Shown here one piece after another: positions 7,105 to 64,000 of a stretch of DNA of 64,000 bases. The notes beneath the pieces are model-generated. The model was not told the DNA's origin, ran no database searches, and worked only from the letters and a program-made list of their open reading frames with translations. Within the stretch, counting starts at the first letter, position 1. Each line of letters starts with the position of its first letter. The stretch covers positions 329,288-393,287 of the forward strand of contig CAYVDD010000001.1 in the NCBI GenBank assembly GCA_964450805.1. Reading direction: 5' to 3'. Position numbers and translations under genes: made by a program. Source of the stretch: an uncultured Candidatus Saccharibacteria bacterium (GTDB taxonomy: Bacteria > Patescibacteriota > Minisyncoccia > Minisyncoccales > JANBVM01).

Positions 7105-9324
7105 TTATTCCAATCCTAAATTTTTCAAAAACTCTTCAATACTTGGCTGTAGTGATGGATCAAGCTCTAACACCTTTAAAGCAGCCTCCTTGGCATCGTT
7201 TAATCTTCCGGCATTAGCATAACTTGCAGCCAAATTAGCCCATATTTCAGTATTTCTAGCATAATATTCAAGTTTTAGTACATCTTCGTAAATTTTAATC
7301 AATGCCTCTTCTCCTTGTACAGTACTGTAGATTTCGCCTCCATGCCTTAAAGTTTCTAAATTCTGTGTCCAGTTATAGCCATGTTCTTCTGCTTTTTTAA
7401 GTTCAGCAAAAGCCAAGTCGTACTCACCTGTTATTTTATATGCCATGGTCAAATACCAATAAGCCTGACCATATCTCGGTTCTAAATCAATTGCATATTG
7501 AAACAAATCATACGAAGTTTGGTAGTTACCTTTAAATAGTTCAATTTCAGCTAATTGCCAGTAAGTCTGTTGATTATTCGGGCTTAGCTCTTTTGCTTTT
7601 TCCATAGTCTTCTCTGCTAAATCTAGAATATCTTTGTCCTGACTAACACGATAATGGGCAAAATAGGTTCTTCCCAAAAAAAGATGTGGTCTGTAATCTA
7701 AAGGATTTTCTTTTATACTCTTTTCCATTTCTTGTTCAGCTAATTTAAAAAATTCTCCAATATTGCTGGGATATCCTGATTTTAAACTGGTTTGGACAAT
7801 TTTCTGAGCAAACTGTTCTCTGGCTTCATACTTATCCATAAAAGTATTTAAAGATTGTTTAAAATAATTTGCTGATTCCTCCGGACCTTCAGCCAAAACA
7901 ATCATATTAACAATATTCCTGGCGCCTAAATAAGGCTGAATGTTACCGTAAAAAAGCAGGATAACTGTTAACAATGCAACAGCACCAATTATTATTTGTC
8001 GTGTTTTTTTAGTGTGTATAAAACTGCTAGGTAAATTATATCCTGTATTTAAAAAAGAACCTTTATCTTCCTCAATTAAATAACTGATAAAACCCAAGGA
8101 TAAGAAGAAAACTACATAACTTGAAATCATATCAAAAACAAGCATGTTGTGAAAGAAATACACAATAAGCAGAACAATCATTATTAAAGGACCAAACATA
8201 TTTTCTTGTCTTTTAAAACAGATCTTTAAAAGATTAAAAATAGAAATTTCAAAAATGAATAAATAAGTTATGAAACCAACTATTCCTGTTGTAGTCAAAA
8301 TATCCAAGACAATATTATGAGCCCTATCAAACCAAATTTCACCACCACATTCATCTACAAACATGCATGGATTAAAAAATTCAACAAAAAGAACATTAAA
8401 ATTTTCTAGGCCCCATCCTAAAACAGGCTTTTTTAAAAATCCTTTCCAACTTGTTTCCCAAACAGCGACTCTTGGCCCCATCTCTTTTAAAGTTTGACTG
8501 ATTTTGGCCTTAATAAAAGAAGGATGAAGAATAAGTAATATTACAGCAATTATTACCAAAAAAGAAAAGATAAAAATTCCTATTTTCTGAATTTTTTTCT
8601 GTTTAGAAAATATTAAATAACCAAAGAATATAAGAAATAATCCCATTGCAAAAGAAATGATTGCACCTCTGGCACTAGAGGTTAATAAAGTAGGAATCAT
8701 GACTAGTAAAGATAAGCCAGAGAATAATCGCCATCCTGTATGCTTTCTCTCAAAAAACAAAAACAGGCTGAAAAAAACATTAAAAAGTAGATAGGCTGCC
8801 ATAAAGGAGGTATTTCCAATAGGACCTCCCCCTCTAGAAGAAACCTGCTCAGTTGTTACAAGACCAATACAGAGGAAGACTCCTGCTAATACTGAAACTG
8901 CAAGGAATTTTCTCCAGGCATCTTTATCTTTAAAAACACTTGTTAAAACTATAAAAAAGGCCAAAAGGTGTAAGAATGTAAAGATTCCTGTCATTCTTTC
9001 ATAAACACTCCAAAAGCTTCTTTTAAGATTGATTCCTAGAAAAGAAGTCAGAATAAGGATTAAAATGAATACTAGAATAGAAACGAAAAGACCATTCATT
9101 TTTGGACGGTAGCGGGGAGCAAATATTACCAAAATTAAATAAAAAGCAAAAATAATTTCTATTAGAATTCTGAAATAAATGGTTTTTGGGGTCACAAAAG
9201 GGAAAAAAGACCTCTGACTTACGATCAAAGGAGTAAAAAGACTCAAATAAATACCTGATTTGATGAAAAAGAGACAGATTTTCTCTAAAAATGGACCTAT
9301 ACTCTGTTTAGTTTTTTTATTCAT
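7105..9324 (-). CDS. O-antigen ligase/Wzy_C-family polytopic membrane protein with C-terminal TPR repeats
   Basis: Contains more than 10 predicted TM helices, SSARGAIISF...GWGLENF...RAHNIVLD (Wzy_C-like loop), and TPR-like repeats in the last ~250 aa. Confidence 0.7.
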   Translation of the reverse strand: MNKKTKQSIGPFLEKICLFFIKSGIYLSLFTPLIVSQRSFFPFVTPKTIYFRILIEIIFAFYLILVIFAPRYRPKMNGLFVSILVFILILILTSFLGINLKRSFWSVYERMTGIFTFLHLLAFFIVLTSVFKDKDAWRKFLAVSVLAGVFLCIGLVTTEQVSSRGGGPIGNTSFMAAYLLFNVFFSLFLFFERKHTGWRLFSGLSLLVMIPTLLTSSARGAIISFAMGLFLIFFGYLIFSKQKKIQKIGIFIFSFLVIIAVILLILHPSFIKAKISQTLKEMGPRVAVWETSWKGFLKKPVLGWGLENFNVLFVEFFNPCMFVDECGGEIWFDRAHNIVLDILTTTGIVGFITYLFIFEISIFNLLKICFKRQENMFGPLIMIVLLIVYFFHNMLVFDMISSYVVFFLSLGFISYLIEEDKGSFLNTGYNLPSSFIHTKKTRQIIIGAVALLTVILLFYGNIQPYLGARNIVNMIVLAEGPEESANYFKQSLNTFMDKYEAREQFAQKIVQTSLKSGYPSNIGEFFKLAEQEMEKSIKENPLDYRPHLFLGRTYFAHYRVSQDKDILDLAEKTMEKAKELSPNNQQTYWQLAEIELFKGNYQTSYDLFQYAIDLEPRYGQAYWYLTMAYKITGEYDLAFAELKKAEEHGYNWTQNLETLRHGGEIYSTVQGEEALIKIYEDVLKLEYYARNTEIWANLAASYANAGRLNDAKEAALKVLELDPSLQPSIEEFLKNLGLE

Positions 9325-9387: not shown

Positions 9388-10698
9388 ATGTCAAATCTAA
9401 GAAAATTTGTCCTGCTTTTAGGAGATATTTTTCTACTCTATTTCTCACTACTCTTAACTGTACTCTTAGGATTTTTAGGAGATTTCAGCTTTGAACTCTT
9501 TGTTCTGCACTTATTGCCTTTTTCAATACTTTATGTTTTTTGGTTGATTATTTTCTATGTTTTTGGGCTCTATGATTTTCATCTAATAAAAACTAGGACT
9601 TCTTTTTACGCTAGTATCTTAGGAGCTATTGCTATTGGACTGGTATTGGGAATGCTTTTCTTTTATACTTTCCCATTTTTTGAAATTACGCCCAAAACTA
9701 ACTTGGTTATTAATGCTCTGCTTTTCGGAATACTGTTCTTAGGATGGCGCAGATTGTCTTATTCTCTATTTTCAGTCCACTTCTTAAGCAGAACAGCAAT
9801 TATAGGCAAAGGCCCTGAAATTGAATATCTTAAAAAAGAAATTAATGAAAAGCCTTATCTTGGTTACAAAGTTATCCCAATTGATATAACACAAGATTTA
9901 CTTTCTCAAATCCAAAATCTTAATATTGATACAGTAATTTTTACAGAAGAATTTGAATCAAATCCTAAAATACTTAAAGCGCTTTATTTCTGTCTTCCAG
10001 CAAAAGTGAATTTTTTGGAATTCTCAAAAGCTTATGAGTTAATTTATAGGAAAATTCCTGTTCAAATGGTTTCTAAGGCATGGTTTTTAGAAAATCTAAA
10101 AGAAGGAGAGAAAGGTTTTTATGATAAATCAAAAAAGTTTATTGATGTTATTATTGCCAGCATTATTCTCATTTTAAGTTTTCCTTTTTGGATACCGATT
10201 GCTATAGTTATCAAATTAGAGGATAAAGGACCTATTTTTTATTCACAGAAAAGAGTCGGTAAAGACAGAAAAGTTTTTATATTGTATAAATTTAGATCAA
10301 TGAGACCTGATGCTGAAAAAAATGGAGTTGTTTGGGCAAAAAAAGAAGATGAAAGAGTCACAAAGGTAGGCAGAATCTTGCGAAGAACTCATATTGACGA
10401 ATTTCCTCAGATGATAAATGTATTAAAAGGAGATATTTCTTTAATTGGACCAAGACCAGAAAGGCCGGAATTTGTACAAGAATTAGAGGGGAAAATCCCT
10501 CACTACCACTTGCGCCATATTATCAAACCCGGGTTTACTGGATGGGCTCAAATAAGATTCAGATATGGTAGATCAGTTATAGATAGTAGTGAAAAGTTTG
10601 AATATGATTTATATTATTTAAAAAATCGTAATTTCTTACTTGACATAGGAATATTGTTAAAAACCTTTCAATTATTCTTTAAGAATGAAAACTCTTAA
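9388..10698 (+). CDS. polyprenyl-phosphate glycosyl-1-phosphate transferase (WbaP/Bac_transf family priming enzyme)
   Basis: N-terminal TM helices, then KFRSM, DEFPQ and GDISLIGPRPERPEF motifs. Confidence 0.85.
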   Translation: MSNLRKFVLLLGDIFLLYFSLLLTVLLGFLGDFSFELFVLHLLPFSILYVFWLIIFYVFGLYDFHLIKTRTSFYASILGAIAIGLVLGMLFFYTFPFFEITPKTNLVINALLFGILFLGWRRLSYSLFSVHFLSRTAIIGKGPEIEYLKKEINEKPYLGYKVIPIDITQDLLSQIQNLNIDTVIFTEEFESNPKILKALYFCLPAKVNFLEFSKAYELIYRKIPVQMVSKAWFLENLKEGEKGFYDKSKKFIDVIIASIILILSFPFWIPIAIVIKLEDKGPIFYSQKRVGKDRKVFILYKFRSMRPDAEKNGVVWAKKEDERVTKVGRILRRTHIDEFPQMINVLKGDISLIGPRPERPEFVQELEGKIPHYHLRHIIKPGFTGWAQIRFRYGRSVIDSSEKFEYDLYYLKNRNFLLDIGILLKTFQLFFKNENS

Positions 10699-11938
10699 AC
10701 AAAGGATTTATAAGTTTTTACGTTGGTCACAAAAATATACAAAAACTGACAATGTATATCTTTTTGAAAGTGGAGGCTGGTTAGGATTCAGTAATCTTTT
10801 TAATACGCTCATTGCTATCGTATCTTCAATTACATTTGCCAATCTGCTTGATCCCATAGTCTATGGAAATTATAAATACATACTTTCCATCACAGGAATG
10901 TTGGGTATTTTTAGTCTTGGAGGAATTGCAAAATCTATTACCCAAGCTGTTGCCCGAGGATTGGAAGGCTCTTTTTATACTGGGTTTAAAGTAAAACTGA
11001 AATGGAGTACATTGGGTAGTTTAAATGCATTAATATTAGCCAGTTATTATTTCATCAAAGGAAATTATCTTTTACCAATCCCTTTAATCATTGTAGCTAT
11101 CTTTTTACCGCTAGTTCGTAGTTTTGGTATTTATTCATCTTTTCTACAAGGCAAGAAGCTCTTCTCTATTGATGCACAATACTCTACTCTCTCCACTTTC
11201 TTTTCTACTTTGATTTCAATCATAACTGTTTTTTTGACCAATAATGTTCTCTGGTTAATTTTAGCTTATTTTATATCAAATACTGTTTTAAACTATATTT
11301 TTTATTCAATTATAAAGAGGAAATTCCAGCCAAATAAAAAAGAAGATCCCCAAACTATTTCTTATGGAAAACATCTTACTTTAATAGACTTATTAGGCCA
11401 AATTGCTTCGCAGCTAGATAGAATACTGCTCTTTACTTTTATTGGGGCAAATCAATTATCCATATTTACATTTGCCCTTATCATTCCTAGTCAAATCAGA
11501 AGTCTTTTAAAGAATATTTCTATTCTTGCCTTTCCGAAACTTTCAGCAAAGCCTATAGAAGAAATTAAGAAGGGTATGAAACGAAAAGTTTGGCAACTAT
11601 TTCTTCTAGCTGCAGTAACAACAATTAGTTATATTTTAATTGCACCTTATATTTTTAGATTAATTTTCCCTCAATATTTAGATTCTATATTTTATTCTCA
11701 AATATATGCTCTTGCAATAATGACTCTTCCTTTTAGCTTGATACTAACAACTTTTGAAGCAAAATTAATGAAAAAAGAGCTTTATTTACTTCAGATTAAT
11801 TCATTTTTGCAAATAATTCTTTCATTATTTTTAGTACCTAAATTTGGAGTATCAGGTGCAATTTTTTCAAGACTGATAGTTAAATTTATTAACATTTTCT
11901 TTATTGTGTTTTTATTTAAGAAAGCTCAAACTTCTTAA
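10685..11938 (+). CDS. Wzx-like polysaccharide flippase (MOP superfamily)
   Basis: 417 aa and polytopic throughout. Directly follows and overlaps the priming transferase. Confidence 0.6.
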   Translation: MKTLKQRIYKFLRWSQKYTKTDNVYLFESGGWLGFSNLFNTLIAIVSSITFANLLDPIVYGNYKYILSITGMLGIFSLGGIAKSITQAVARGLEGSFYTGFKVKLKWSTLGSLNALILASYYFIKGNYLLPIPLIIVAIFLPLVRSFGIYSSFLQGKKLFSIDAQYSTLSTFFSTLISIITVFLTNNVLWLILAYFISNTVLNYIFYSIIKRKFQPNKKEDPQTISYGKHLTLIDLLGQIASQLDRILLFTFIGANQLSIFTFALIIPSQIRSLLKNISILAFPKLSAKPIEEIKKGMKRKVWQLFLLAAVTTISYILIAPYIFRLIFPQYLDSIFYSQIYALAIMTLPFSLILTTFEAKLMKKELYLLQINSFLQIILSLFLVPKFGVSGAIFSRLIVKFINIFFIVFLFKKAQTS

Positions 11939-37559: not shown

Positions 37560-37596
37560 ATTTGACATAAATTCAGAAAATGTAATCATTAAAGAT

Positions 37597-37674
37597 TAAA
37601 GAAAGGAAACCTGGTGAAAATCCAGGGCTGTGCCGCAACTGTAATCCAACTGGTGAGTCAGAATACTTTCTTTA
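37597..37674 (+). promoter_or_regulatory. cobalamin riboswitch aptamer (compact form)
   Basis: Core AAAGGAAACCTGGTGAAAATCCAGGGCTGTGCCGCAACTGTAA matches the conserved GGGAA..GGTGAAAATCC..GCCGCAACTGTAA pattern of cobalamin riboswitches. P1 is closed by TAAAGAAAG (37597-37605) and CTTTCTTTA (37666-37674). Confidence 0.75.
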
Positions 37675-37733
37675 GTAATTAATAATATTTTTCTTTTCGA
37701 GCAAAAAGAAAAGTAAGCTGTTTTTTGAAATAG

Positions 37734-57289: not shown

Positions 57290-57957
57290 TCTGTTTTGAG
57301 TTTGTAAAAAGTAGTGTTTTTTTTCCCTTTTCTTTCTACTAACCCATCTTTTAATAATTTTCTGAAATCACGACGCAGAGTTCTTTTACTCACATCTGGA
57401 AAAGAGTCTTTTACCTCCCAAACTTGAACACCTTCTTTTTGCTTTAAAATATCTAAGATTCTTTTCTGCCTGTCACTAACCTCTATATTACTTTTTTCCA
57501 TAGTAGGCGGTTCAGATACAATAAGTGGTTCAGGTAAAGGAACACTACTAAGGCCTTGATTAAGCTGAATAGGAGATGAAGCTGTTTCTACAATTTCTTT
57601 TTTTTCTTGGTCTTGTTTTTCTTGTTCCTGTTGTTCTTCTTGTTTTTTTGGCTCTTTTAGGCCTTGTTTGATGTTTTTATAGTCTTGCTGAAGATTTAAG
57701 ATATCAACTGGCTTTACCCAATTCTGCTCTTTAGCAATCTCAAAAAAACTATCTAAAACTTCAAATAAATTATGGGAATTTTCAACAAGCCCTGGGCTTA
57801 TTAGAGGATTAGAAACAGGGTTAAAATAAGTAATGGAATTAGCCAGAATCTCATCAGCTAATTCCCTCATTTTAAATCTTAAAGGCTCTTTTTTAGGAAA
57901 AAGAAGTGTCAGTCTGTATAGTTCATTTGTTATTTCAACTACATGATTTTTGTCCAT
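57277..57957 (-). CDS. winged-helix (DeoR-type HTH) DNA-binding protein with N-terminal helical-bundle domain and acidic/Gln-rich linker
   Basis: C-terminus DRQKRILDILKQKEGVQVWEVKDSFPDVSKRTLRRDFRKLLKDGLVERKG. Start taken as ATG 57957 (MDKNHV), because the ORF-track TTG start is the -35 box of its own promoter. Confidence 0.65.
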   Translation of the reverse strand: MDKNHVVEITNELYRLTLLFPKKEPLRFKMRELADEILANSITYFNPVSNPLISPGLVENSHNLFEVLDSFFEIAKEQNWVKPVDILNLQQDYKNIKQGLKEPKKQEEQQEQEKQDQEKKEIVETASSPIQLNQGLSSVPLPEPLIVSEPPTMEKSNIEVSDRQKRILDILKQKEGVQVWEVKDSFPDVSKRTLRRDFRKLLKDGLVERKGKKNTTFYKLKTDRTI

Positions 57958-57973
57958 ATTATTTATACTAACA

Positions 57974-58002
57974 ACTATATCAAAAACAAAAAAATTGGTC
58001 AA
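57974..58002 (-). promoter_or_regulatory. sigma70-type promoter (TTGACC-17-TATAGT) for the HTH gene
   Basis: Minus strand TTGACC (58002-57997), 17-nt spacer, TATAGT (57979-57974). The ATG is 16 nt downstream. Confidence 0.55.
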
Positions 58003-58004
58003 AA

Positions 58005-58140
58005 AAAATACAACAATACTATTATGGAATAATCTCTGGAAAACTTAATAATAACTTGTTTAAAACTCTGTGGAATTTTTGTGTACCTTTTGTGTGTTTT
58101 TTGTTATATATTTGTTATCTATTTGTAATAGAGTCTTTGG
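58005..58140. repeat. ~135-bp intergenic module 'Y', copy A (between divergent promoters)
   Basis: Colinear by-eye alignment with 58989-59120: aaaatacaaca..tggaa.aatctctggaaaa..ttaataacttgtt.aaa..ctgtg.aatttttgtg...ttttgtgtgttt.ttgt.atat.t.tta.ctatttgtaataga..ctttgg. Confidence 0.7.
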
Positions 58141-58141
58141 T

Positions 58142-58170
58142 TTGACAAATTTAATAAAATATTATATAGT
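58142..58170 (+). promoter_or_regulatory. sigma70-type promoter (TTGACA-17-TATAGT) for the 75-aa membrane protein gene
   Basis: TTGACA 58142-58147 and TATAGT 58165-58170. A strong SD (AAGGAGGTGA, 58195-58204) precedes the ATG at 58209. Confidence 0.6.
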
Positions 58171-58208
58171 TCAAGTATTAAAATTTAAAAAAATAAGGAG
58201 GTGATTGA

Positions 58209-58436
58209 ATGGTAGAGCTAGAGTTTATCATATTATTAACAATAACGTTGTTTGGTAATTTTGCGGTGTTAACGTTCGCATATGAGTTCTTAGGAAAAGT
58301 TTTCCAAAGAGATAAAAAACAAAAGATTTGTTTATTTATTATCCTGGTTTGGGGAATGGTTTTTTTCTCTGTAATACTAATTTGGCTCTCATATAAACCC
58401 TACATAGTATTATTCCAAGTAGTGTTTGTAGAATAA
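58209..58436 (+). CDS. 75-aa two-TM small membrane protein, unknown function
   Basis: Consensus promoter, a perfect SD at correct spacing, two hydrophobic helices, and its own terminator. Confidence 0.7.
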   Translation: MVELEFIILLTITLFGNFAVLTFAYEFLGKVFQRDKKQKICLFIILVWGMVFFSVILIWLSYKPYIVLFQVVFVE

Positions 58437-58473
58437 TATTTTTTTAGTTCTTTTTATAGGTTTGAAAAAGGCG

Positions 58474-58498
58474 AAACTGCTTTTAAAAGCAGTTTTTT
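58474..58498. terminator. rho-independent terminator
   Basis: AACTGCTTTT/AAAAGCAGTT perfect palindrome followed by a T-run. Confidence 0.75.
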
Positions 58499-58618
58499 AT
58501 CTTAATGAAATAATAGATATTCTCTAATATTAATATATTTTTTTATTTCTTTCTTTTCTTCGTTTCATTATATTCAACTCGTCCGAGGGACGGACGATAT
58601 TAAAACCTTTTTAAGGAG

Positions 58619-59014
58619 GTAATCAACAAAAACCGCCTTAATAGAATAATATATATAAAAAAATACGGCTTATTTAACTTCGCCGTTTTTAACGGTTTTC
58701 CGAAAAAAAATGAGATTATGTATAAATAAATACCTCTTCCCAGTTCGAAAAGGGTAATTTTGTCTTTTTTTCTTTCTCCTCTTTCACTTCTTGTTCTTCT
58801 TCTTTCATTATAAAATAGACCTCTTTTTTTCTTTTATTTTTTAATTAATGTTTTATTTTTAGATGCTACCAATACTTATTAAAAAGTCAAAACCCGAATC
58901 AGAGGATTGGGTTTTAACAACTCGGAGTAGGACTCACTTCGATAAATTCAGAGGAAACTTCTCATCCCTAAACAGAATATCTCAAAATAAAATACAACAG
59001 CACTGTTGTGGAAA
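58619..59014. repeat. ~400-bp direct repeat 'X', copy 1 (upstream flank of the RM gene)
   Basis: Aligns colinearly with 61661-62100. Identical runs of ~53, 37 and 37 nt are separated by substitutions and a 33-nt indel. Confidence 0.85.
58716..58808 (-). CDS. 30-aa acidic/Lys-rich micro-protein (paralog of 61773-61898)
   Basis: Own translation MKEEEQEVKEEKEKKTKLPFSNWEEVFIYT*, with an AGAGG upstream. The paralog differs by an in-frame 11-codon indel and keeps the stop position. Confidence 0.45.
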   Translation of the reverse strand: MKEEEQEVKEEKEKKTKLPFSNWEEVFIYT

Positions 59015-59120
59015 AATCTCTGGAAAAGCTTTTAATAACTTGTTAAAAATCCTGTGTAATTTTTGTGCATGTTTTGTGTGTTTGTTGTATATTTATTACC
59101 TATTTGTAATAGAACTTTGG
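58989..59120. repeat. ~135-bp module 'Y', copy B (fused to the end of X copy 1, upstream of the RM gene)
   Basis: See copy A; the same order of conserved blocks. Confidence 0.7.
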
Positions 59121-59201
59121 CAAGTATCCCAGCGGCAGGGCTTTGCAGATGTGTTTTTCTTTGCTAAGATTAAATTAGATTTAGCAATTGTGGAAAACTT
59201 T

Positions 59202-61592
59202 ATGAATAAGTTCAATTTCAGCAAAATCCAAGTTTCAACGGAAGAAGATGTAAAAGTTAAAATTATTGCAAAGTTGTTAAAACATTTAGGATTTTCTGAA
59301 AACGTTTCTGGTGAGGTAGAGTACGACAAACCTATTTCTATTGGTAGAGGTAGACACGTATATCCTGATATAGTCGTTAATATAAACAAAGCCCCCGCTT
59401 TTGTTATTGACTCTAAAGCCCCAAACGAAAATCTTGACTTTTATAAAGAGCAAGTAATTTCTTATGGATTACTTTTAAGAGTGCCCTATTCAGTTTTGTG
59501 TAATGGTCAGGAATTAAGGGTTTATGATACAAGAACTGAAGAGGTTGTTTGGAATAAGGATGTATCTGTATTTCCAAAGTTCTTAAGTAAAAAAGGTTTA
59601 GTAGAAAAGATTAAGAAATCCATTGATACTCTTACCAAAGAACAAGAAGAGAAAGCAAAAAAGACTTTATCGGTTTTTGAGGGCATCAGAGAATTTTCTT
59701 CAATCTTTTACAAATGCGAAGATTTAATAAGAGATATTGATGGCCTTACAGGTGCTGATGCATTCGATGAATTAAGCATGTTGCTCTTTACTAAAATGTA
59801 TGAAGAACAAAAAGCACTTGAAGAAAATAGAAAAAGTAGATTTATTATAAGTGAACAGACAGATGCACATTATATCAAAAATGATTTATTCAAAAGGGCT
59901 GTAGATGATAATCCTGATATTTTTGAGGGAAATGAGAAAATTACATTAGATAATGAAACTGTGAAGGGTATTACTAAATTATTACAAGATTATACTCTTT
60001 TAGAGACAGATGTTGATGTTAAGGGACGGGCTTTTGAGATTTTTCTTGGTAAAACTTTTACTGGTAAGTTGGGTCAATTCTTTACTCCTCGAACTATAGT
60101 TGATTTCATGGTCAATTTTGTAAACCCAACCAGGCTATCTAATGGTAAAAACTTATATTCTGTTATAGACCCCGCCTGTGGAAGCGGTGGTTTTTTAATT
60201 CGTGTTTTCACTCATATAGCAAATCAAATTAAAGAGATAGAGAAAGATAGCGATAAGAGAAAAGAGGCTTTAGACATTTTATCAAAACAACAGCTTTTTG
60301 GGGTTGATATAAACCCTCGTTTAGTCAGGATTGCTAAAATGAATATGGTACTACATGGAGATGGGCATGGAGGTATTTTCCGCCACAATGGATTAAAGAC
60401 ACATCAACACGAACGTCTCATTGGTAAAGAATTTGATTTGGTAATCACGAATCCACCTTTTGGCAATAAAGATAAGGGAGATATATTAAAAGAGTTTCAG
60501 TTGGGCAAATATACTACTGGTAATCCTCCAGAACAGGCGAGAGAAATTTTGTTTATTGAAGAGTGTATAAAATTATTGAAAGAGAATGGTGAATTAGCCA
60601 TTTTACTTCCTGATGGCATTCTCAATAATTCTCGATTGAATTATGTTAGAGAATTTATTAAAAAGCACACCATAATTCAGGCGATTATTAGCTTGCCGGA
60701 TAGAGCTTTTAAGGCTTCGGGTGCAAATAGTAAAACCAGCGTTATTTTCGTTAGAAAAAAAAGTAATCACGAAACACAAAAACCAGTATTTATGGCTATT
60801 GCAGAAGAGGTGGGTTATGATAGACAAACTAAAGAAGCTAAGGCAATAAGCCAAAACGATTTACCTTTAATATTAAAACAATATAAAGATTTCTTAACCA
60901 CTCAAACTTATAGGTCAATCCAATCAAACATTGATAAGGTTTATATTATATCTGAAGAGCCAGCTTCTTTTATGATTGACTCGGATTTATTAGATAAAAG
61001 ATTAGATGCTACTTATTTTTACTCAAAACATGTATTCAAGTTAGATGTGCCAAGTATTAAGTTATCAGACATAGCTTATTTATCGGAAGATAGAATAAAT
61101 CCAGAGAAGTATTCAAAAAGAATCTTTAAATATATGCAATTCAGTGATGTAGAAAAAAGACTCGGTAGTATTGTCTCCTGGTCAAATTATGCAGGTGATG
61201 AGATGCCATCGAGGGCACGAATGTTAATAAAGTCAGGCGATGTAATAGCGGCTAAGGTAAAAGATAGTGAAGAAAATGTAGCTATTATTCCAAAAGAGCT
61301 AAACGGAGAAGTTGTTTCAACTGGGTTTGCTGTTTTGAGACCGAAGAAAGGTGTTGCGTCTGAAGTATTATATGTCTTAATGAGGCTTAAAAGCACTTTC
61401 AATCAAATTAGATGGATGGTAGCTGGTACAATCCAGCCAGCGATTAAAGATGAAGATTTGATGCAAATTATATTACCGAAATTAAATAAAGGAACACAAG
61501 ATAAAGTTATCAAAAGAATTAAAAAGATTGAGAAAGCACGAGAAAAAGTCAGAAAAGAACTCGAGGAAGTAGAAAAAATAATAATTGATTAA
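59202..61592 (+). CDS. single-chain restriction-modification enzyme: N-terminal PD-(D/E)xK nuclease (HSDR_N-like) + gamma-class N6-adenine DNA methyltransferase (HsdM-like) + one HsdS-like target-recognition domain (Type IIG/IIB-like)
   Basis: YPDIVV...FVIDSKAP (PD...DxK), VIDPACGSGGFLI (motif I), VITNPPFG (motif IV), and a C-terminal TRD ending in a coiled-coil tail. Start set at MNKFNF (59202), because the upstream 113 codons of the ORF-track model lie in repeated intergenic DNA. Confidence 0.8.
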   Translation: MNKFNFSKIQVSTEEDVKVKIIAKLLKHLGFSENVSGEVEYDKPISIGRGRHVYPDIVVNINKAPAFVIDSKAPNENLDFYKEQVISYGLLLRVPYSVLCNGQELRVYDTRTEEVVWNKDVSVFPKFLSKKGLVEKIKKSIDTLTKEQEEKAKKTLSVFEGIREFSSIFYKCEDLIRDIDGLTGADAFDELSMLLFTKMYEEQKALEENRKSRFIISEQTDAHYIKNDLFKRAVDDNPDIFEGNEKITLDNETVKGITKLLQDYTLLETDVDVKGRAFEIFLGKTFTGKLGQFFTPRTIVDFMVNFVNPTRLSNGKNLYSVIDPACGSGGFLIRVFTHIANQIKEIEKDSDKRKEALDILSKQQLFGVDINPRLVRIAKMNMVLHGDGHGGIFRHNGLKTHQHERLIGKEFDLVITNPPFGNKDKGDILKEFQLGKYTTGNPPEQAREILFIEECIKLLKENGELAILLPDGILNNSRLNYVREFIKKHTIIQAIISLPDRAFKASGANSKTSVIFVRKKSNHETQKPVFMAIAEEVGYDRQTKEAKAISQNDLPLILKQYKDFLTTQTYRSIQSNIDKVYIISEEPASFMIDSDLLDKRLDATYFYSKHVFKLDVPSIKLSDIAYLSEDRINPEKYSKRIFKYMQFSDVEKRLGSIVSWSNYAGDEMPSRARMLIKSGDVIAAKVKDSEENVAIIPKELNGEVVSTGFAVLRPKKGVASEVLYVLMRLKSTFNQIRWMVAGTIQPAIKDEDLMQIILPKLNKGTQDKVIKRIKKIEKAREKVRKELEEVEKIIID

Positions 61593-61660
61593 CAAATTAT
61601 GAAGAAACCTTCAACTGGTGTCTGCTTCTTCAACCACTACTGCTTTTGCCTTGCCCTAGA

Positions 61661-62100
61661 GATAATCAATTAAAACTACCTTAAATGAAGCACAATAGAA
61701 TAATATATAATAGTAAAAAAATACGGCTTATTTAACTTCGCCGTTTTTAACGGTTTTCCGAAAAAAATTAGATCAGGTAAAAGAAAATACCTCTTCCCAG
61801 CTAAAAAAAGGCAATTTTGTCTTTTTTTCTTTCTCCTCTTTCACTTCTTTCACTTCTTCCCAGCCTAATTCTGCTAATTTTTTAATATCTTCTTTCATTA
61901 TAGACCTCTTTTTTATTTTATTTTTTAGTTAAATGTTCTATTTTTAGATGGTACCAATACTTATTAAAAAGTCAAAACCCGAATCAGAAGCTCGGGTTTC
62001 AATAACTCGGTGGTAGGACTCCCTCCGGTAAACCCAGAAGAAACTTCTCATCCAACAGAATATCCCAAAACGAAAACACAACAGCTTATTTGTGGAAAAA
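61661..62100. repeat. ~400-bp direct repeat 'X', copy 2 (downstream flank of the RM gene)
   Basis: See copy 1; offset ~3.05 kb. Confidence 0.85.
61773..61898 (-). CDS. 41-aa acidic/Lys-rich micro-protein (paralog of 58716-58808)
   Basis: Own translation MKEDIKKLAELGWEEVKEVKEEKEKKTKLPFFSWEEVFSFT*, with an AGAGG 6 nt upstream of the ATG. Confidence 0.45.
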   Translation of the reverse strand: MKEDIKKLAELGWEEVKEVKEEKEKKTKLPFFSWEEVFSFT

Positions 62101-62338
62101 AAGAAAAGGGATGAAAAAAAGCTCACCCCAAAATAACTACTAAACTTAATGAACTACTACATGAACTACATGAACTATACGAAACGAAATAACGAACACT
62201 ACCCTTTTTTTCATCACCTCTAGTCTATTAATATATATTTTATTATTCAAAAAAATTTGTCAATTGTGGAAAAATAAACAAGAGACAATTTGTCTCTTAT
62301 AGGATTAAAAAATTATCTTTCTTTGTGTTTAAATATAA

Positions 62339-62440
62339 TTAATACTGAAAAGCGTAATAAAGCATCCAGCCAATCACAAAAAAGGCAATTATAAGGTCGA
62401 ATAAAAGAAATATGCCGCCTTTTTGAAAATTAATTTGCAT
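62339..62440 (-). CDS. 33-aa hydrophobic single-TM micro-protein (tentative)
   Basis: Own translation MQINFQKGGIFLLFDLIIAFFVIGWMLYYAFQY*. It starts 6 nt after the stop of the upstream HtrA-like gene. Confidence 0.3.
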   Translation of the reverse strand: MQINFQKGGIFLLFDLIIAFFVIGWMLYYAFQY

Positions 62441-62445
62441 AGATT

Positions 62446-63126
62446 TTAAAAACCAGCAAAAGTTCTGATTATTGAAACAGGAATAGCGCTTACCATCCCC
62501 CAGTAGTCAACAGTTGTCAAACCAACAAGTTCTCCTTTAATATTGAACAAGGGACTGCCAGCCATGGTTAATTTTTCAAAAATATTTGTTGAAATCAGGC
62601 TATCATTGAAATAAGAAACAATTCCCTGGTTAGTCCCGCGAGTAAATTCTTCAACTCCATAAACTGTTCCAACCAGAAAAACCCTTTCTCCTGTTCTTAA
62701 TTTATTAAAATCAGCAAAACCGACTGTTGGCAAATTATCCTGCTCAAGCTTTACTAAAGCTAAGTTTTGAGTTAAATCTCTTTTAAGGATTTGATAAGAT
62801 AATGGCTTTCCATCAACAAAGAATAGAAATTTAGAACCCTGAGGAACAAGTTCAGCTAAAGTCACAATTAAACCATCTGAAGTTAAAATTATTCCTGAGC
62901 CGTGAAGAACTTTCTCTTTAGTGGTTGTTTTTATTCCAATAACTGTTTTTTCCACCTTTTCAACGGCATTTCTTAAAGCAGTGTTTTCTTCAATAATAAT
63001 TTCCTCTCTTTCAGTTACATAAACAGGCCTTCCAGTAAAATATGGACCAATGACCTGATTAGCGAAAACTCCTCCTAAAATACCAATAATAAAAATAAAC
63101 AGGATTTTGAAAAATGTTTTTCTCAT
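62446..63126 (-). CDS. membrane-anchored trypsin/HtrA-fold (S1C-like) protein lacking PDZ domains, with catalytic triad apparently substituted
   Basis: N-terminal TM helix, then GSGIILTSDGLIVTLAELV, NLALVKL and TMAGSPLFNIKGELVGL. By eye these align to the DegP blocks GSGVII..GYVVTNNHVV, DIALIQI and GNSGGALVN..GELIGI, with H/D/S replaced by E/N/A. Confidence 0.6.
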   Translation of the reverse strand: MRKTFFKILFIFIIGILGGVFANQVIGPYFTGRPVYVTEREEIIIEENTALRNAVEKVEKTVIGIKTTTKEKVLHGSGIILTSDGLIVTLAELVPQGSKFLFFVDGKPLSYQILKRDLTQNLALVKLEQDNLPTVGFADFNKLRTGERVFLVGTVYGVEEFTRGTNQGIVSYFNDSLISTNIFEKLTMAGSPLFNIKGELVGLTTVDYWGMVSAIPVSIIRTFAGF

Positions 63127-63129
63127 ATA

Positions 63130-64000
63130 TTAAACAGAGACTCTTTGCCTTTTCCCCTGATTCTTTATCAAGTCTTTTGCGCTTAAAAACATTATTTTCT
63201 CGTTCTGAAAATCAATAACTATTCTTTTATTCTTTTCAAAATCACCGGAAATAATTTTCAAAGACAAAGGATCTAAAATCTTCTTTTGAATTACTCTTTT
63301 TAATGGTCTTGCCCCTAAATTAGAATCAAAGCCTTTTTCAGCAATAAAGTCTTTAACAGACTCTTCAATTCTGACGTCAATGTCTTTTTTCTTTAATCTT
63401 TTGGCAACTTTATCAAACTCTAAATTAACTATCTTTTTAATCTCTGTTTTACTAAGAAAATTAAAGATAACAATGTCATCAATTCTGTTTAAGAACTCTG
63501 GCCTGAAACTATTTTTTAAAGCTGACAGAACTTTTTCCCTTAATGACTCTTTTTGCTTTTCTTTTTCATCGCCTCCAATAAATCCTAAAGAAGCTTGTTT
63601 AGCAATAATATCTGAACCAACATTTGAAGTCATAATAAGAATTGCGTTTTTAAAAGAAGCTAATCTTCCTTTAGCATCAGTCAGTCTTCCATCTTCTAAA
63701 ATCTGAAGAAGAATATTAAACACTTCTGGGTGAGCCTTTTCAATTTCATCAAGCAGAATAACACTATATGGCCTTCTTCTTATCTTTTCAGTCAATTGAC
63801 CGCCTTCTTCATGGCCAACATAACCAGGAGGAGAACCAATCATTTTGGAAACAGTGTGTTTTTCCATGTATTCTGACATGTCCAAACGAACAAGCGAATC
63901 TTCATTGTTAAATAAAAAGCTGGCCAAGGCTTTAGCAGTCTCTGTTTTTCCAACGCCTGTTGGTCCTAGGAACATAAATGAGCCTAAAGGCCTGTTTTCC
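63130..64000 (-). CDS. Clp/Hsp100 AAA+ ATPase (ClpB/ClpC family), C-terminal D2 portion; gene continues beyond the window
   Basis: RPLGSFMFLGPTGVGKTE (Walker A), VILLDEIEKAHPEVFNILLQILEDGRLTD and GARPLKR. The reading frame stays open to position 64000. Confidence 0.85.
   Translation of the reverse strand, partial: ENRPLGSFMFLGPTGVGKTETAKALASFLFNNEDSLVRLDMSEYMEKHTVSKMIGSPPGYVGHEEGGQLTEKIRRRPYSVILLDEIEKAHPEVFNILLQILEDGRLTDAKGRLASFKNAILIMTSNVGSDIIAKQASLGFIGGDEKEKQKESLREKVLSALKNSFRPEFLNRIDDIVIFNFLSKTEIKKIVNLEFDKVAKRLKKKDIDVRIEESVKDFIAEKGFDSNLGARPLKRVIQKKILDPLSLKIISGDFEKNKRIVIDFQNEKIMFLSAKDLIKNQGKRQRVSV

Follow-up and report, generated by a model that had tools for sequence, protein, structure and literature searches.

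Bacterial proteins of at most 50 amino acids (aa) that are encoded by small open reading frames (ORFs) include soluble regulators such as SgrT, Sda and MntS, and short ORFs preceded by regulatory hairpins are familiar from transcription attenuators and leader-peptide systems of the trp or pyrBI type. The genomes of the candidate phyla radiation (CPR, or Patescibacteria) are very small, and no function has been assigned to a large part of their genes; to our knowledge, the small proteins of these bacteria are essentially unstudied. We describe here two micro-ORFs of 30 and 41 codons found in a 64,000-nucleotide (nt) stretch of DNA from an uncultured CPR bacterium (the whole of this stretch is referred to as the window), in which the named relatives closest to the neighbouring proteins belong to Candidatus Nealsonbacteria. 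The micro-ORFs lie one in each of two long direct repeats, X1 and X2, which bracket a restriction-modification (RM) gene. RM genes between long direct repeats, including cases of “insertion with long target duplication”, are on record for every RM type (Furuta et al. 2010, PMC2853133), Nobusato et al. 2000 being cited in that paper for RM genes inserted with a long duplication of their target. Our reading of the locus, to which we give a probability of about 0.6, is that a gene for a small soluble protein is present in each repeat as a self-contained unit, and that the two-hairpin leader in front of the gene is a separate one. The coordinates of the features are collected in Table 1.

The two repeats, of ~400–440 nt, are ~80% identical end to end (blastn E 1e-102 to 1e-106; MAFFT). 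In each of them, a leader of ~90 nt, which contains a weak hairpin 1, a strong hairpin 2 and then GACTTTTT, comes before the micro-ORF, and a 3′ tail of ~40 nt follows the terminator. On direct reading, the sequence details given for both copies in a preliminary description of this DNA were all correct, and the repeats extend beyond the coordinates that it gave for them. An independent Logan assembly from the same organism (L021) is 100% identical to window positions 64000–61959 and ends inside a 37-nt stretch common to X1 and X2, which is the behaviour expected of a genuine repeat in short-read assembly; the Logan run SRR14802572 has DNA identical to that of the window. The two micro-ORFs differ by one 33-nt in-frame indel, and their stops share the same aligned position. 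The gene unit would start with a sigma-70-type promoter (TTGACT-16-TGgTAnCAT) driving the micro-ORF, followed by an A-rich 5′ untranslated region (UTR) of ~50 nt with an AGAGG ribosome-binding site (RBS), both of which can be read directly from the sequence, and by the ORF itself, whose coding nature is backed by a comparison with one relative; at its end the sequence shows an invariant stem-loop of terminator type, ACGGC-GAAGTTAAATAA-GCCGT-T7. A 909-aa ORF listed mechanically from position 58863 was rejected, as it is an upstream extension running across X1 and is not credible.

Relatives of the micro-protein were sought with an exhaustive HMMER search of 1.84 billion representative proteins, using a profile built from the two window peptides. 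Five matches were obtained, namely the two window proteins (P0001 and P0242), one spurious repeat protein, P0244 and P0245. P0244 (MKDEITEKLEELGWEEEIEKEDKKEKKKKLDFSWEDVFSFT, 41 aa) was aligned over its full length (E 4.7e-5) and is 64% identical to the product of micro-ORF 2 over the whole length, and P0245 (MRYKMIKKFLKIFINGLRKKLGKEKKTKLPFSNLEDVFAYT, 41 aa), the product of a 2,773-nt ENA contig, was aligned over its C-terminal 20 residues (E 4.4e-4). The micro-protein family has four members among ~15 billion proteins, all of them apparently from Nealsonbacteria-like CPR metagenomes. The gene for P0244 is located on Logan contig L028 (1,497 nt) in a neighbourhood unlike that of the window, with unrelated small ORFs upstream of it and engB downstream. 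What this contig keeps is the TTGATT...TGGTAATAA element and the A-rich UTR AAAATAAAAGAAAAAATAGAGG, then an ATG with its frame of 41 codons and a TAA stop at the same position, as well as the stem-loop with its T-run, in which 31 of 31 nt are identical to both window copies; the frame, its start and the position of its stop are thus retained although the nucleotide sequences have diverged. The TTGAYT-16-TGGTA arrangement between the upstream DNA (hairpin 2 in the window) and the ORF is kept in X1, X2 and L028. The two-hairpin leader is absent from L028, and there is no RM gene on this 1.5-kb contig.

A word-indexed protein search with the 41-aa peptide returned the self-match only; as the 30-aa paralogue escaped this search too, little can be read into its negative outcome. 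No record came up for the same peptide in an exact look-up. Scanning GTDB genomes with the neighbouring protease yielded relatives that were 41–50% identical only, none with DNA similarity to the repeats, and a synteny walk from the protease and helix-turn-helix (HTH) genes covered 16 loci, none with the repeat, partial modules being present in L008 only. The 22-mer CGGAAAACCGTTAAAAACGGCG was not found in a scan of JGI metagenomes, for which the wrong block had been chosen, L028 showing ACGGCGAAGTTAAATAAGCCGT to be the conserved part, and the peptide patterns EVKEEKE and KKTKLPF[FS] gave 600 candidates in the same collection, 0 of which were confirmed. Scans of IMG/VR with four DNA patterns and a four-peptide profile produced only chance 18-mer matches in GC-rich contigs, and a tblastn search of a phage collection had no match.

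Coding tests were carried out on three DNA sequences (X1, X2 and L028) and four peptides, with a codon alignment guided by the protein alignment. All three indels are in frame (33, 3 and 3 nt), the stop codon has a constant position while the codon itself is TAA in X1, TGA in X2 and TAA in L028, and an ATG with an AGAGG box 6–11 nt upstream is present in all three DNAs. The ratio of nonsynonymous to synonymous substitution rates (dN/dS) is 0.26–0.31 in 3 of 3 pairwise comparisons. Of the 30 differences that separate X2 from L028, 9 are synonymous, against an expected share of 15% (P = 0.03), and the excess of synonymous changes in the other two pairs has P values of 0.08 and 0.11. Two serine codons have switched codon family between X2 and L028 (AGC to TCA, and TCT to AGT). 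No frame other than that of the micro-ORF combines an ATG with just one stop, at the end, in each of the three sequences, the other sense frames being stop-rich, and a hairpin that RNAalifold predicts inside the ORF of X1 and X2 has three of its pairs broken in L028, where the peptide is kept. The substitution pattern, in what is a small sample, speaks for purifying selection acting on the peptide, and the micro-ORF is very probably translated. The earlier proposal that a small-protein gene has been duplicated here is thus upheld by the two further 41-aa relatives, by the retention of the frame, stop position, RBS and terminator, and by substitutions of the coding type. The micro-ORF looks like a real, lineage-restricted small-protein gene without assigned function, representing a very rare new family that belongs to a known kind. 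Two other candidate ORFs were rejected: a conserved antisense ORF, whose start and stop are not kept, and a coding ORF within the leader, where the frame that runs for 35 codons in X2 meets a stop in X1 after only 5.

The C-terminal part of the micro-protein is near-invariant, KEKK(T/K)KL(P/D)F..(W/L)E(E/D)VF.(F/Y)T-COOH, and includes the peptides LPFSNWEEVFIYT and LPFFSWEEVFSFT. The N-terminal part is variable: it is absent in the 30-aa copy, X2 and P0244 have a second LGWEE repeat in it, and in P0245 a basic/hydrophobic sequence takes its place. AlphaFold2, given the four-sequence alignment, predicts a long helix at residues 2–26 and a short one at residues 34–40 with low-to-moderate confidence (predicted local distance difference test, pLDDT, of 67), and places F, W, V/F and F/Y on one face of the C-terminal helix. 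According to this model, the N-terminal part would be a K/E-rich helix variable in both length and sequence, and the C-terminal segment a short amphipathic aromatic helix that would dock onto a partner protein. Since no family match was obtained with the micro-proteins in Pfam, NCBIfam, PHROG, PADLOC or the PDB, the mode of action is one that we infer, the most likely being that of a soluble mini-protein docking its aromatic C-terminal helix onto a partner. As is the case for SgrT, Sda and MntS, the gene stands alone, with 30–41 codons and its own RBS, promoter-like site and terminator, and the product is hydrophilic with a conserved part predicted to be a short helix, which would be consistent with binding to a larger partner. 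It differs from them in having no sequence relationship to any described small protein, and in its four members only.

Several observations weigh against this reading of the repeats. The coding inference is drawn from three DNAs and four peptides, the protein-guided codon alignment inflates the apparent synonymy, open frames arise easily in purine-rich sequence, and one antisense frame is free of stops in X2 and L028. The N-terminal half of P0245 is wholly different from that of the other members, and the promoters and transcript ends of the micro-ORF unit are consensus matches and so are presumed ones. The terminator block is identical at 31 of 31 nt in X1, X2 and L028 while the ORF is ~75% identical between X2 and L028; the probability of 31 consecutive matches at 75% identity is ~1e-4, and since simple termination needs no conserved loop, a plain terminator role leaves the identity of the loop unexplained. 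As for the duplication, the ~80% identity of the repeats is below that of published long target duplications, and an “empty site” with a single repeat and no RM gene was not found in the relatives, the protease and HTH sides having different neighbours in every relative fetched.

Some of these points would be accounted for if the micro-ORF were untranslated and the conserved unit were a small non-coding RNA (ncRNA), consisting of a purine-rich body and the invariant 3′ stem-loop, with the frame as a by-product of T-poor composition. The full conservation of the stem-loop, including its 12-nt loop, next to an “ORF” that has diverged by ~25% would be expected of such an RNA, as would the purine-rich sequence and the antisense frame open in two of the three copies; a family of just four among so many proteins and the negative JGI and IMG/VR pattern scans also speak for it. 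We nevertheless consider it unlikely, given the ATG with AGAGG at 6–11 nt in every DNA, the indels that are all multiples of 3, the stop position that is kept with different stop codons, and the serine codon-family switches and a dN/dS of ~0.3. The internal RNA hairpin is moreover what was lost in L028, the peptide being retained, and P0245 retains the C-terminal peptide motif with W-to-L and E-to-D substitutions.

The leader differs from the micro-ORF in how it is conserved. Hairpin 2 is the dominant element in single-sequence folds of both copies, and a homologous hairpin is present in L008, a relative with 86% protease identity. Across X1, X2 and L008, 87% of the cells of hairpin 2 are paired; its five variable pairs show one-sided changes, with G-U pairs preserved on the minus strand only, there are 0 compensatory changes, and shuffles reach the observed values. 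As the G-U pairs in X2 and L008 are valid only on the minus strand, they favour minus-strand transcription; in the preliminary description, one wobble pair in hairpin 2 of copy 1 had favoured the plus strand. Hairpin 1 has seven pairs when the two sequences are compared, three of them invariant, one compensatory (U-A/G-C) and three broken in one copy or the other, and it was not recovered by RNAalifold, which preferred other pairings. Of the two hairpins reported earlier, hairpin 2 is therefore retained in both copies as a terminator-like element and hairpin 1 is present but weak; the “partial covariation” attributed to the latter comes down to a single compensatory pair beside three broken ones, which is no more than chance, and neither hairpin has statistically supported covariation (RNAalifold; pair counts against shuffles). 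In a search of the window against Rfam 15, the sole family above its gathering score was an AdoCbl (cobalamin) riboswitch at 37580–37719 on the plus strand, away from the repeats (RF01482, 63.6 bits). Within 57900–62500 the best matches reached ~20 bits for thresholds of 40–59; with permissive thresholds and related loci included, none was found for the repeats, and a covariance model of the leader run over 312 kb of related DNA found X1 and X2 only.

Because the T-run of hairpin 2 overlaps the −35-like TTGACT of the micro-ORF, we take the leader to be, most likely, a unit of its own upstream of the gene and not a conserved attenuator of the micro-ORF. It is preceded by a box of the CACAA-N8-TTGTG type, common to the neighbouring HTH_DeoR/extracytoplasmic function (ECF) sigma operon, and would end at hairpin 2, as a minus-strand intrinsic terminator overlapping the −35 box of the micro-ORF. 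On the simplest reading, the leader would be either a short operator-preceded transcript or a mere terminator or insulator, the micro-ORF being transcribed from its own putative promoter. In L008, a hairpin-2-like element with TTGACA-17-TACAAT precedes a ~190-nt GC-rich element with no Rfam match, and a second hairpin-2-like/promoter junction precedes a 71-aa gene.

The preliminary description had instead proposed a structured, possibly attenuating leader for the small-protein gene, with a regulator or antitoxin-like partner of the RM cassette, or an unrelated small protein, as candidate roles. In such a model, leader and micro-ORF would be one transcription unit, and the leader would attenuate a small protein that regulates or neutralises the adjacent RM enzyme. 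This would be in keeping with the contiguity and co-duplication of leader and ORF, with both copies abutting the RM gene, with the terminator form of hairpin 2 just upstream of the ORF, and with the one compensatory pair in hairpin 1. It is, however, also improbable in view of L028, where the gene is placed between unrelated ORFs and engB with neither leader nor RM gene on the 1.5-kb contig, of the conserved promoter-like element between hairpin 2 and the ORF, and of the different cargo that follows the hairpin in L008. The broken pairs of hairpin 1 and its absence from the RNAalifold structure, the hairpin 2 measures, which never exceed those of shuffles, and the lack of matches both in Rfam and, for the micro-proteins, among the PADLOC defence models point the same way. 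In addition, X1 is divergent from the RM gene and X2 convergent with it, so that the two copies cannot share one regulatory geometry with this gene. In comparison with attenuators of the trp/pyrBI type, the locus has in common a terminator hairpin placed before a short ORF, and the CCGTT-AAA-AACGG / ACGGC...GCCGT region downstream of this ORF allows alternative hairpins that overlap one another to be drawn. It differs from them in that no regulated gene follows X1 or X2 on the same strand, that a promoter-like element separates hairpin 2 from the ORF, and that L028 does without the leader.

The stem-loop that would terminate the small-protein gene is part of a 54-nt block which is 100% identical between X1 and X2, with 0 chance matches in shuffles. 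It is flanked by A and T tracts on both sides and could therefore terminate in both directions. Apart from the copies next to the micro-ORF, this stem-loop was found neither in the window nor in IMG/VR or the 28 loci that were fetched; as it occurs solely with the micro-ORF, a general terminator resembling repetitive extragenic palindromic (REP) elements was rejected. The GTTAAAT of the loop fits the GTTRRRY core of attC-type sites; an integron attC-like or dif-like site in the loop was rejected, there being no inverse core or arm structure. A bolder view, which we regard as a long shot, is that promoter, 30–41-aa ORF and invariant 22-nt stem-loop form a cassette that is mobile as a small gene unit and specific to CPR bacteria of the Nealsonbacteria-like kind. 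If true, this would account for the cassette being found in unrelated contexts and on both sides of the RM gene; the product would be a docking or decoy peptide acting through the FxxWEEVFxFT helix (a mini-antitoxin, for instance, or a peptide that modulates an enzyme of defence or proteostasis), and the 3′ stem-loop, including the GAAGTTAAATAA loop, would be more than a terminator and have a function of its own as RNA or DNA, for example as a protein-binding or recombination site.

A further idea, which is very improbable, would make the micro-protein a mini-antitoxin or decoy that stands alone, descended from the part of a Phd/YefM-like antitoxin that binds the toxin, and binding a RelE/ParE-type toxin or a similar groove. 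In its favour, a Phd-like antitoxin in L001 (12458–12670), beside a ParE/RelE-like gene, has RPLFRISPVEEENWEEVIDFT, echoing KLPFSNWEEVFIYT, with W[ED][ED][VI][FILV]..[TS] limited to this antitoxin and the three micro-ORFs among 625,000 translated residues and a 41% probability from hhalign over 10 columns. Against it, the motif would be met ~0.4 times by chance in that many residues, which makes one extra match not significant, tblastn gives the L001 match an E of ~2, no toxin gene adjoins X1 or X2, and the antitoxin models of Pfam and NCBIfam miss the peptides. The short acidic/aromatic segment NWEEV(F/I)x(Y/F)T is shared with this antitoxin from a related genome at a level that is not statistically significant; unlike type II antitoxins of the Phd/YefM kind, the micro-protein lacks a DNA-binding domain at its N-terminus, and no toxin gene lies beside its own. 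The echoes of the motif, NWEEVIDFT in the L001 antitoxin and LPLFNWEDVIAFT in PDB 4mud, are statistically insignificant and serve as leads only.

The whole ~400-nt module would be doubled because the type IIG RM gene sits between long direct repeats. The RM gene is a lone 2.4-kb ORF between X1 and X2, with no transposase or integrase. What Furuta et al. (2010) use to recognise such cases is found here, with repeats longer than 30 bp, an insert shorter than 20 kb and no other mobility gene. Like the class described in PMC2853133, the locus has a single RM gene and direct repeats far over 30 bp, and it holds different RM genes in related genomes. Unlike it, X1 and X2 have several indels at their ~80% identity, where the published cases are mostly >90% identical, and X1 is a mosaic that agrees, on its 5′ side, with the regulatory region of the HTH operon. 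A long-target-duplication mechanism for X1 and X2 is plausible but unproven. Compositional evidence for a foreign RM gene was sought and rejected, as its GC content is like that of the surroundings. In relatives (L022–L024), a different type IIG RM gene (24% identical) and GmrSD are found (at 1–4414 in L022) upstream of the orthologous operon coding for the HTH protein, sigma factor, DUF5667 and surface protein. With a different RM gene and GmrSD at the orthologous position, the locus behaves as a defence hotspot, in which allelic replacement would have taken place.

The boxes at the 5′ edges of the repeats have the shared form TTCCACAA-N6-TGTTGT, that is, the inverted repeat CACAA-N8-TTGTG, which is also found before the HTH_DeoR/ECF-sigma operon (~58005–58030, minus strand) and three times in L008 (~1945, 2340 and 4346), upstream of several genes. 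The exact sequence TTTTCCACAA occurs four times in the window, always inside the two repeats. The CACAA-N8-TTGTG box is a candidate operator, perhaps for the HTH_DeoR protein. In X1 and the HTH operon, it is preceded by ACACAAAA boxes spaced ~11 nt apart. The 5′ flank of the mosaic X1 matches the regulatory region of the HTH operon, and the DNA upstream of X1 is also kept before the orthologous HTH-sigma operons in L022–L027. X1 is followed by a convergent 75-aa membrane ORF (58142–58436, plus strand; near-perfect promoter TTGACA-17-TATAGT, RBS AAGGAGGTGA, no Pfam match), and then by the operon of HTH_DeoR, ECF sigma factor, DUF5667 and a 1378-aa surface protein.

Table 1. Positions of the features of the repeat locus in the window.
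Feature	Position	Strand	Description	Basis
Repeat X1	58615..59016	-	5′ to 3′: operator-like box, leader, hairpin 2, promoter-like site, micro-ORF, terminator, tail	blastn and MAFFT against X2
Repeat X2	61660..62100	-	Order of elements as in X1; Logan contig L021 identical down to 61959	
Third partial copy of the DNA upstream of X1	57999..58140	-	Matches 58985-59120, 83% identical; regulatory region of the HTH_DeoR/ECF-sigma operon	
Box TTTTTCCACAA-N6-TGTTGT	58994..59016	-	5′ edge of X1; inverted repeat ACAACAG-TG-CTGTTGT; candidate operator	
Box TTTTTCCACAA-N6-TGTTGT	62078..62100	-	5′ edge of X2	
Hairpin 1 of X1	58922..58942	-	TCGAAGT / GAGTCCT / ACTCCGA; weak, one A.C mismatch	
Hairpin 1 of X2	62008..62027	-	CGGAGG / GAGTCCTA / CCACCG; weak, one A.A mismatch	
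Hairpin 2 of X1	58887..58917	-	AAAACCCAATC...GATTCGGGTTTT then GACTTTTT; intrinsic-terminator-like, upstream unit	Single-sequence fold, pair counts
Hairpin 2 of X2	61972..62002	-	12 pairs and T-run	Terminator scan (minus strand), pair counts
Promoter-like site, micro-ORF 1	58863..58890	-	TTGACT-16-TG-g-TAGCAT; overlaps the T-run of hairpin 2; putative function	
Promoter-like site, micro-ORF 2	61948..61975	-	TTGACT-16-TG-g-TACCAT	
AGAGG RBS, micro-ORF 1	58820..58824	-	11-nt spacer to ATG; kept in X2 and L028 (TAGAGG)	
AGAGG RBS, micro-ORF 2	61905..61909	-	6-nt spacer to ATG	
Micro-ORF 1	58716..58808	-	MKEEEQEVKEEKEKKTKLPFSNWEEVFIYT, 30 aa, stop TAA; P0242 in the protein collection (636,475-bp NCBI contig), already called in the NCBI record	
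Micro-ORF 2	61773..61898	-	MKEDIKKLAELGWEEVKEVKEEKEKKTKLPFFSWEEVFSFT, 41 aa, stop TGA; P0001, already called in the NCBI record	
Micro-ORF 1 terminator	58657..58686	-	ACGGC-GAAGTTAAATAA-GCCGT (58686-58665), then A and T-run	
Micro-ORF 2 terminator	61715..61744	-	ACGGC-GAAGTTAAATAA-GCCGT (61744-61723) and T-run; faces the 3′ end of the RM gene	
Type IIG-like RM gene	59202..61592	+	796 aa in a single chain; HSDR_N nuclease, N6_Mtase/Eco57I, C-terminal specificity region	Pfam, PADLOC

Further small elements were seen in the neighbourhood and in the related contigs. The gene block that X2 follows consists of ClpB, of a protease of the Trypsin_2 type and of a membrane micro-ORF of 33 aa. This hydrophobic micro-ORF of 33–36 aa (MQINFQKGGIFLLFDLIIAFFVIGWMLYYAFQY) comes right after the protease gene in the window (62339–62440, minus strand) and in three relatives (L008 1683–1787, L006 ~10687–10785 and L009 ~8070–8180), and probably represents a real small membrane protein co-transcribed with the protease. 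At 62108–62273 on the minus strand, a promoter-like TTTTCCACAATTGACA, a GAGGTG, a 22-codon ORF MKKRVVFVISFRIVHVVHVVVH and a terminator GGGGTGAGC-T7-CATCCC form a unit whose DNA and terminator are kept in L008 (1850–2005), where the ORF stops after 2 codons; a small RNA or regulatory region is thus more likely here than a gene. Gene-free, GC-richer elements of 190–330 nt are found in L022 (4960–5250 and 5300–5660, also in L023 and L024), L025 (5270–5640, also in L026 and L027) and L008 (2040–2300). Each of them is located behind a near-consensus promoter (TTGACA-17-TAGAAT or TACAAT) and has a terminator at its end; they form a tandem duplicate in L022, are 78–84% conserved between L022 and L025, and have no Rfam match, which makes them candidates for new ncRNAs of Nealsonbacteria. 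In L028, two overlapping small ORFs (80–128 aa and 88 aa) without Pfam match are located upstream of the micro-ORF, at 270–924 on the plus strand, and look like a toxin-antitoxin-style bicistron, although no family was matched. Finally, the independent assemblies of related organisms L006/L007, L009 and L021 break ~380–490 nt beyond the 3′ end of the protease gene, which points to repeats at this locus, or to variation among strains, in several populations.

Neither the small-protein gene nor the bracketed RM gene alters current concepts, as both are of known kinds. What the locus adds is one CPR small-protein gene backed by comparison with relatives, whose peptide motif and 3′ stem-loop can both be searched for, and, also from the CPR, a case of an RM gene inside a defence hotspot with long direct repeats on either side.

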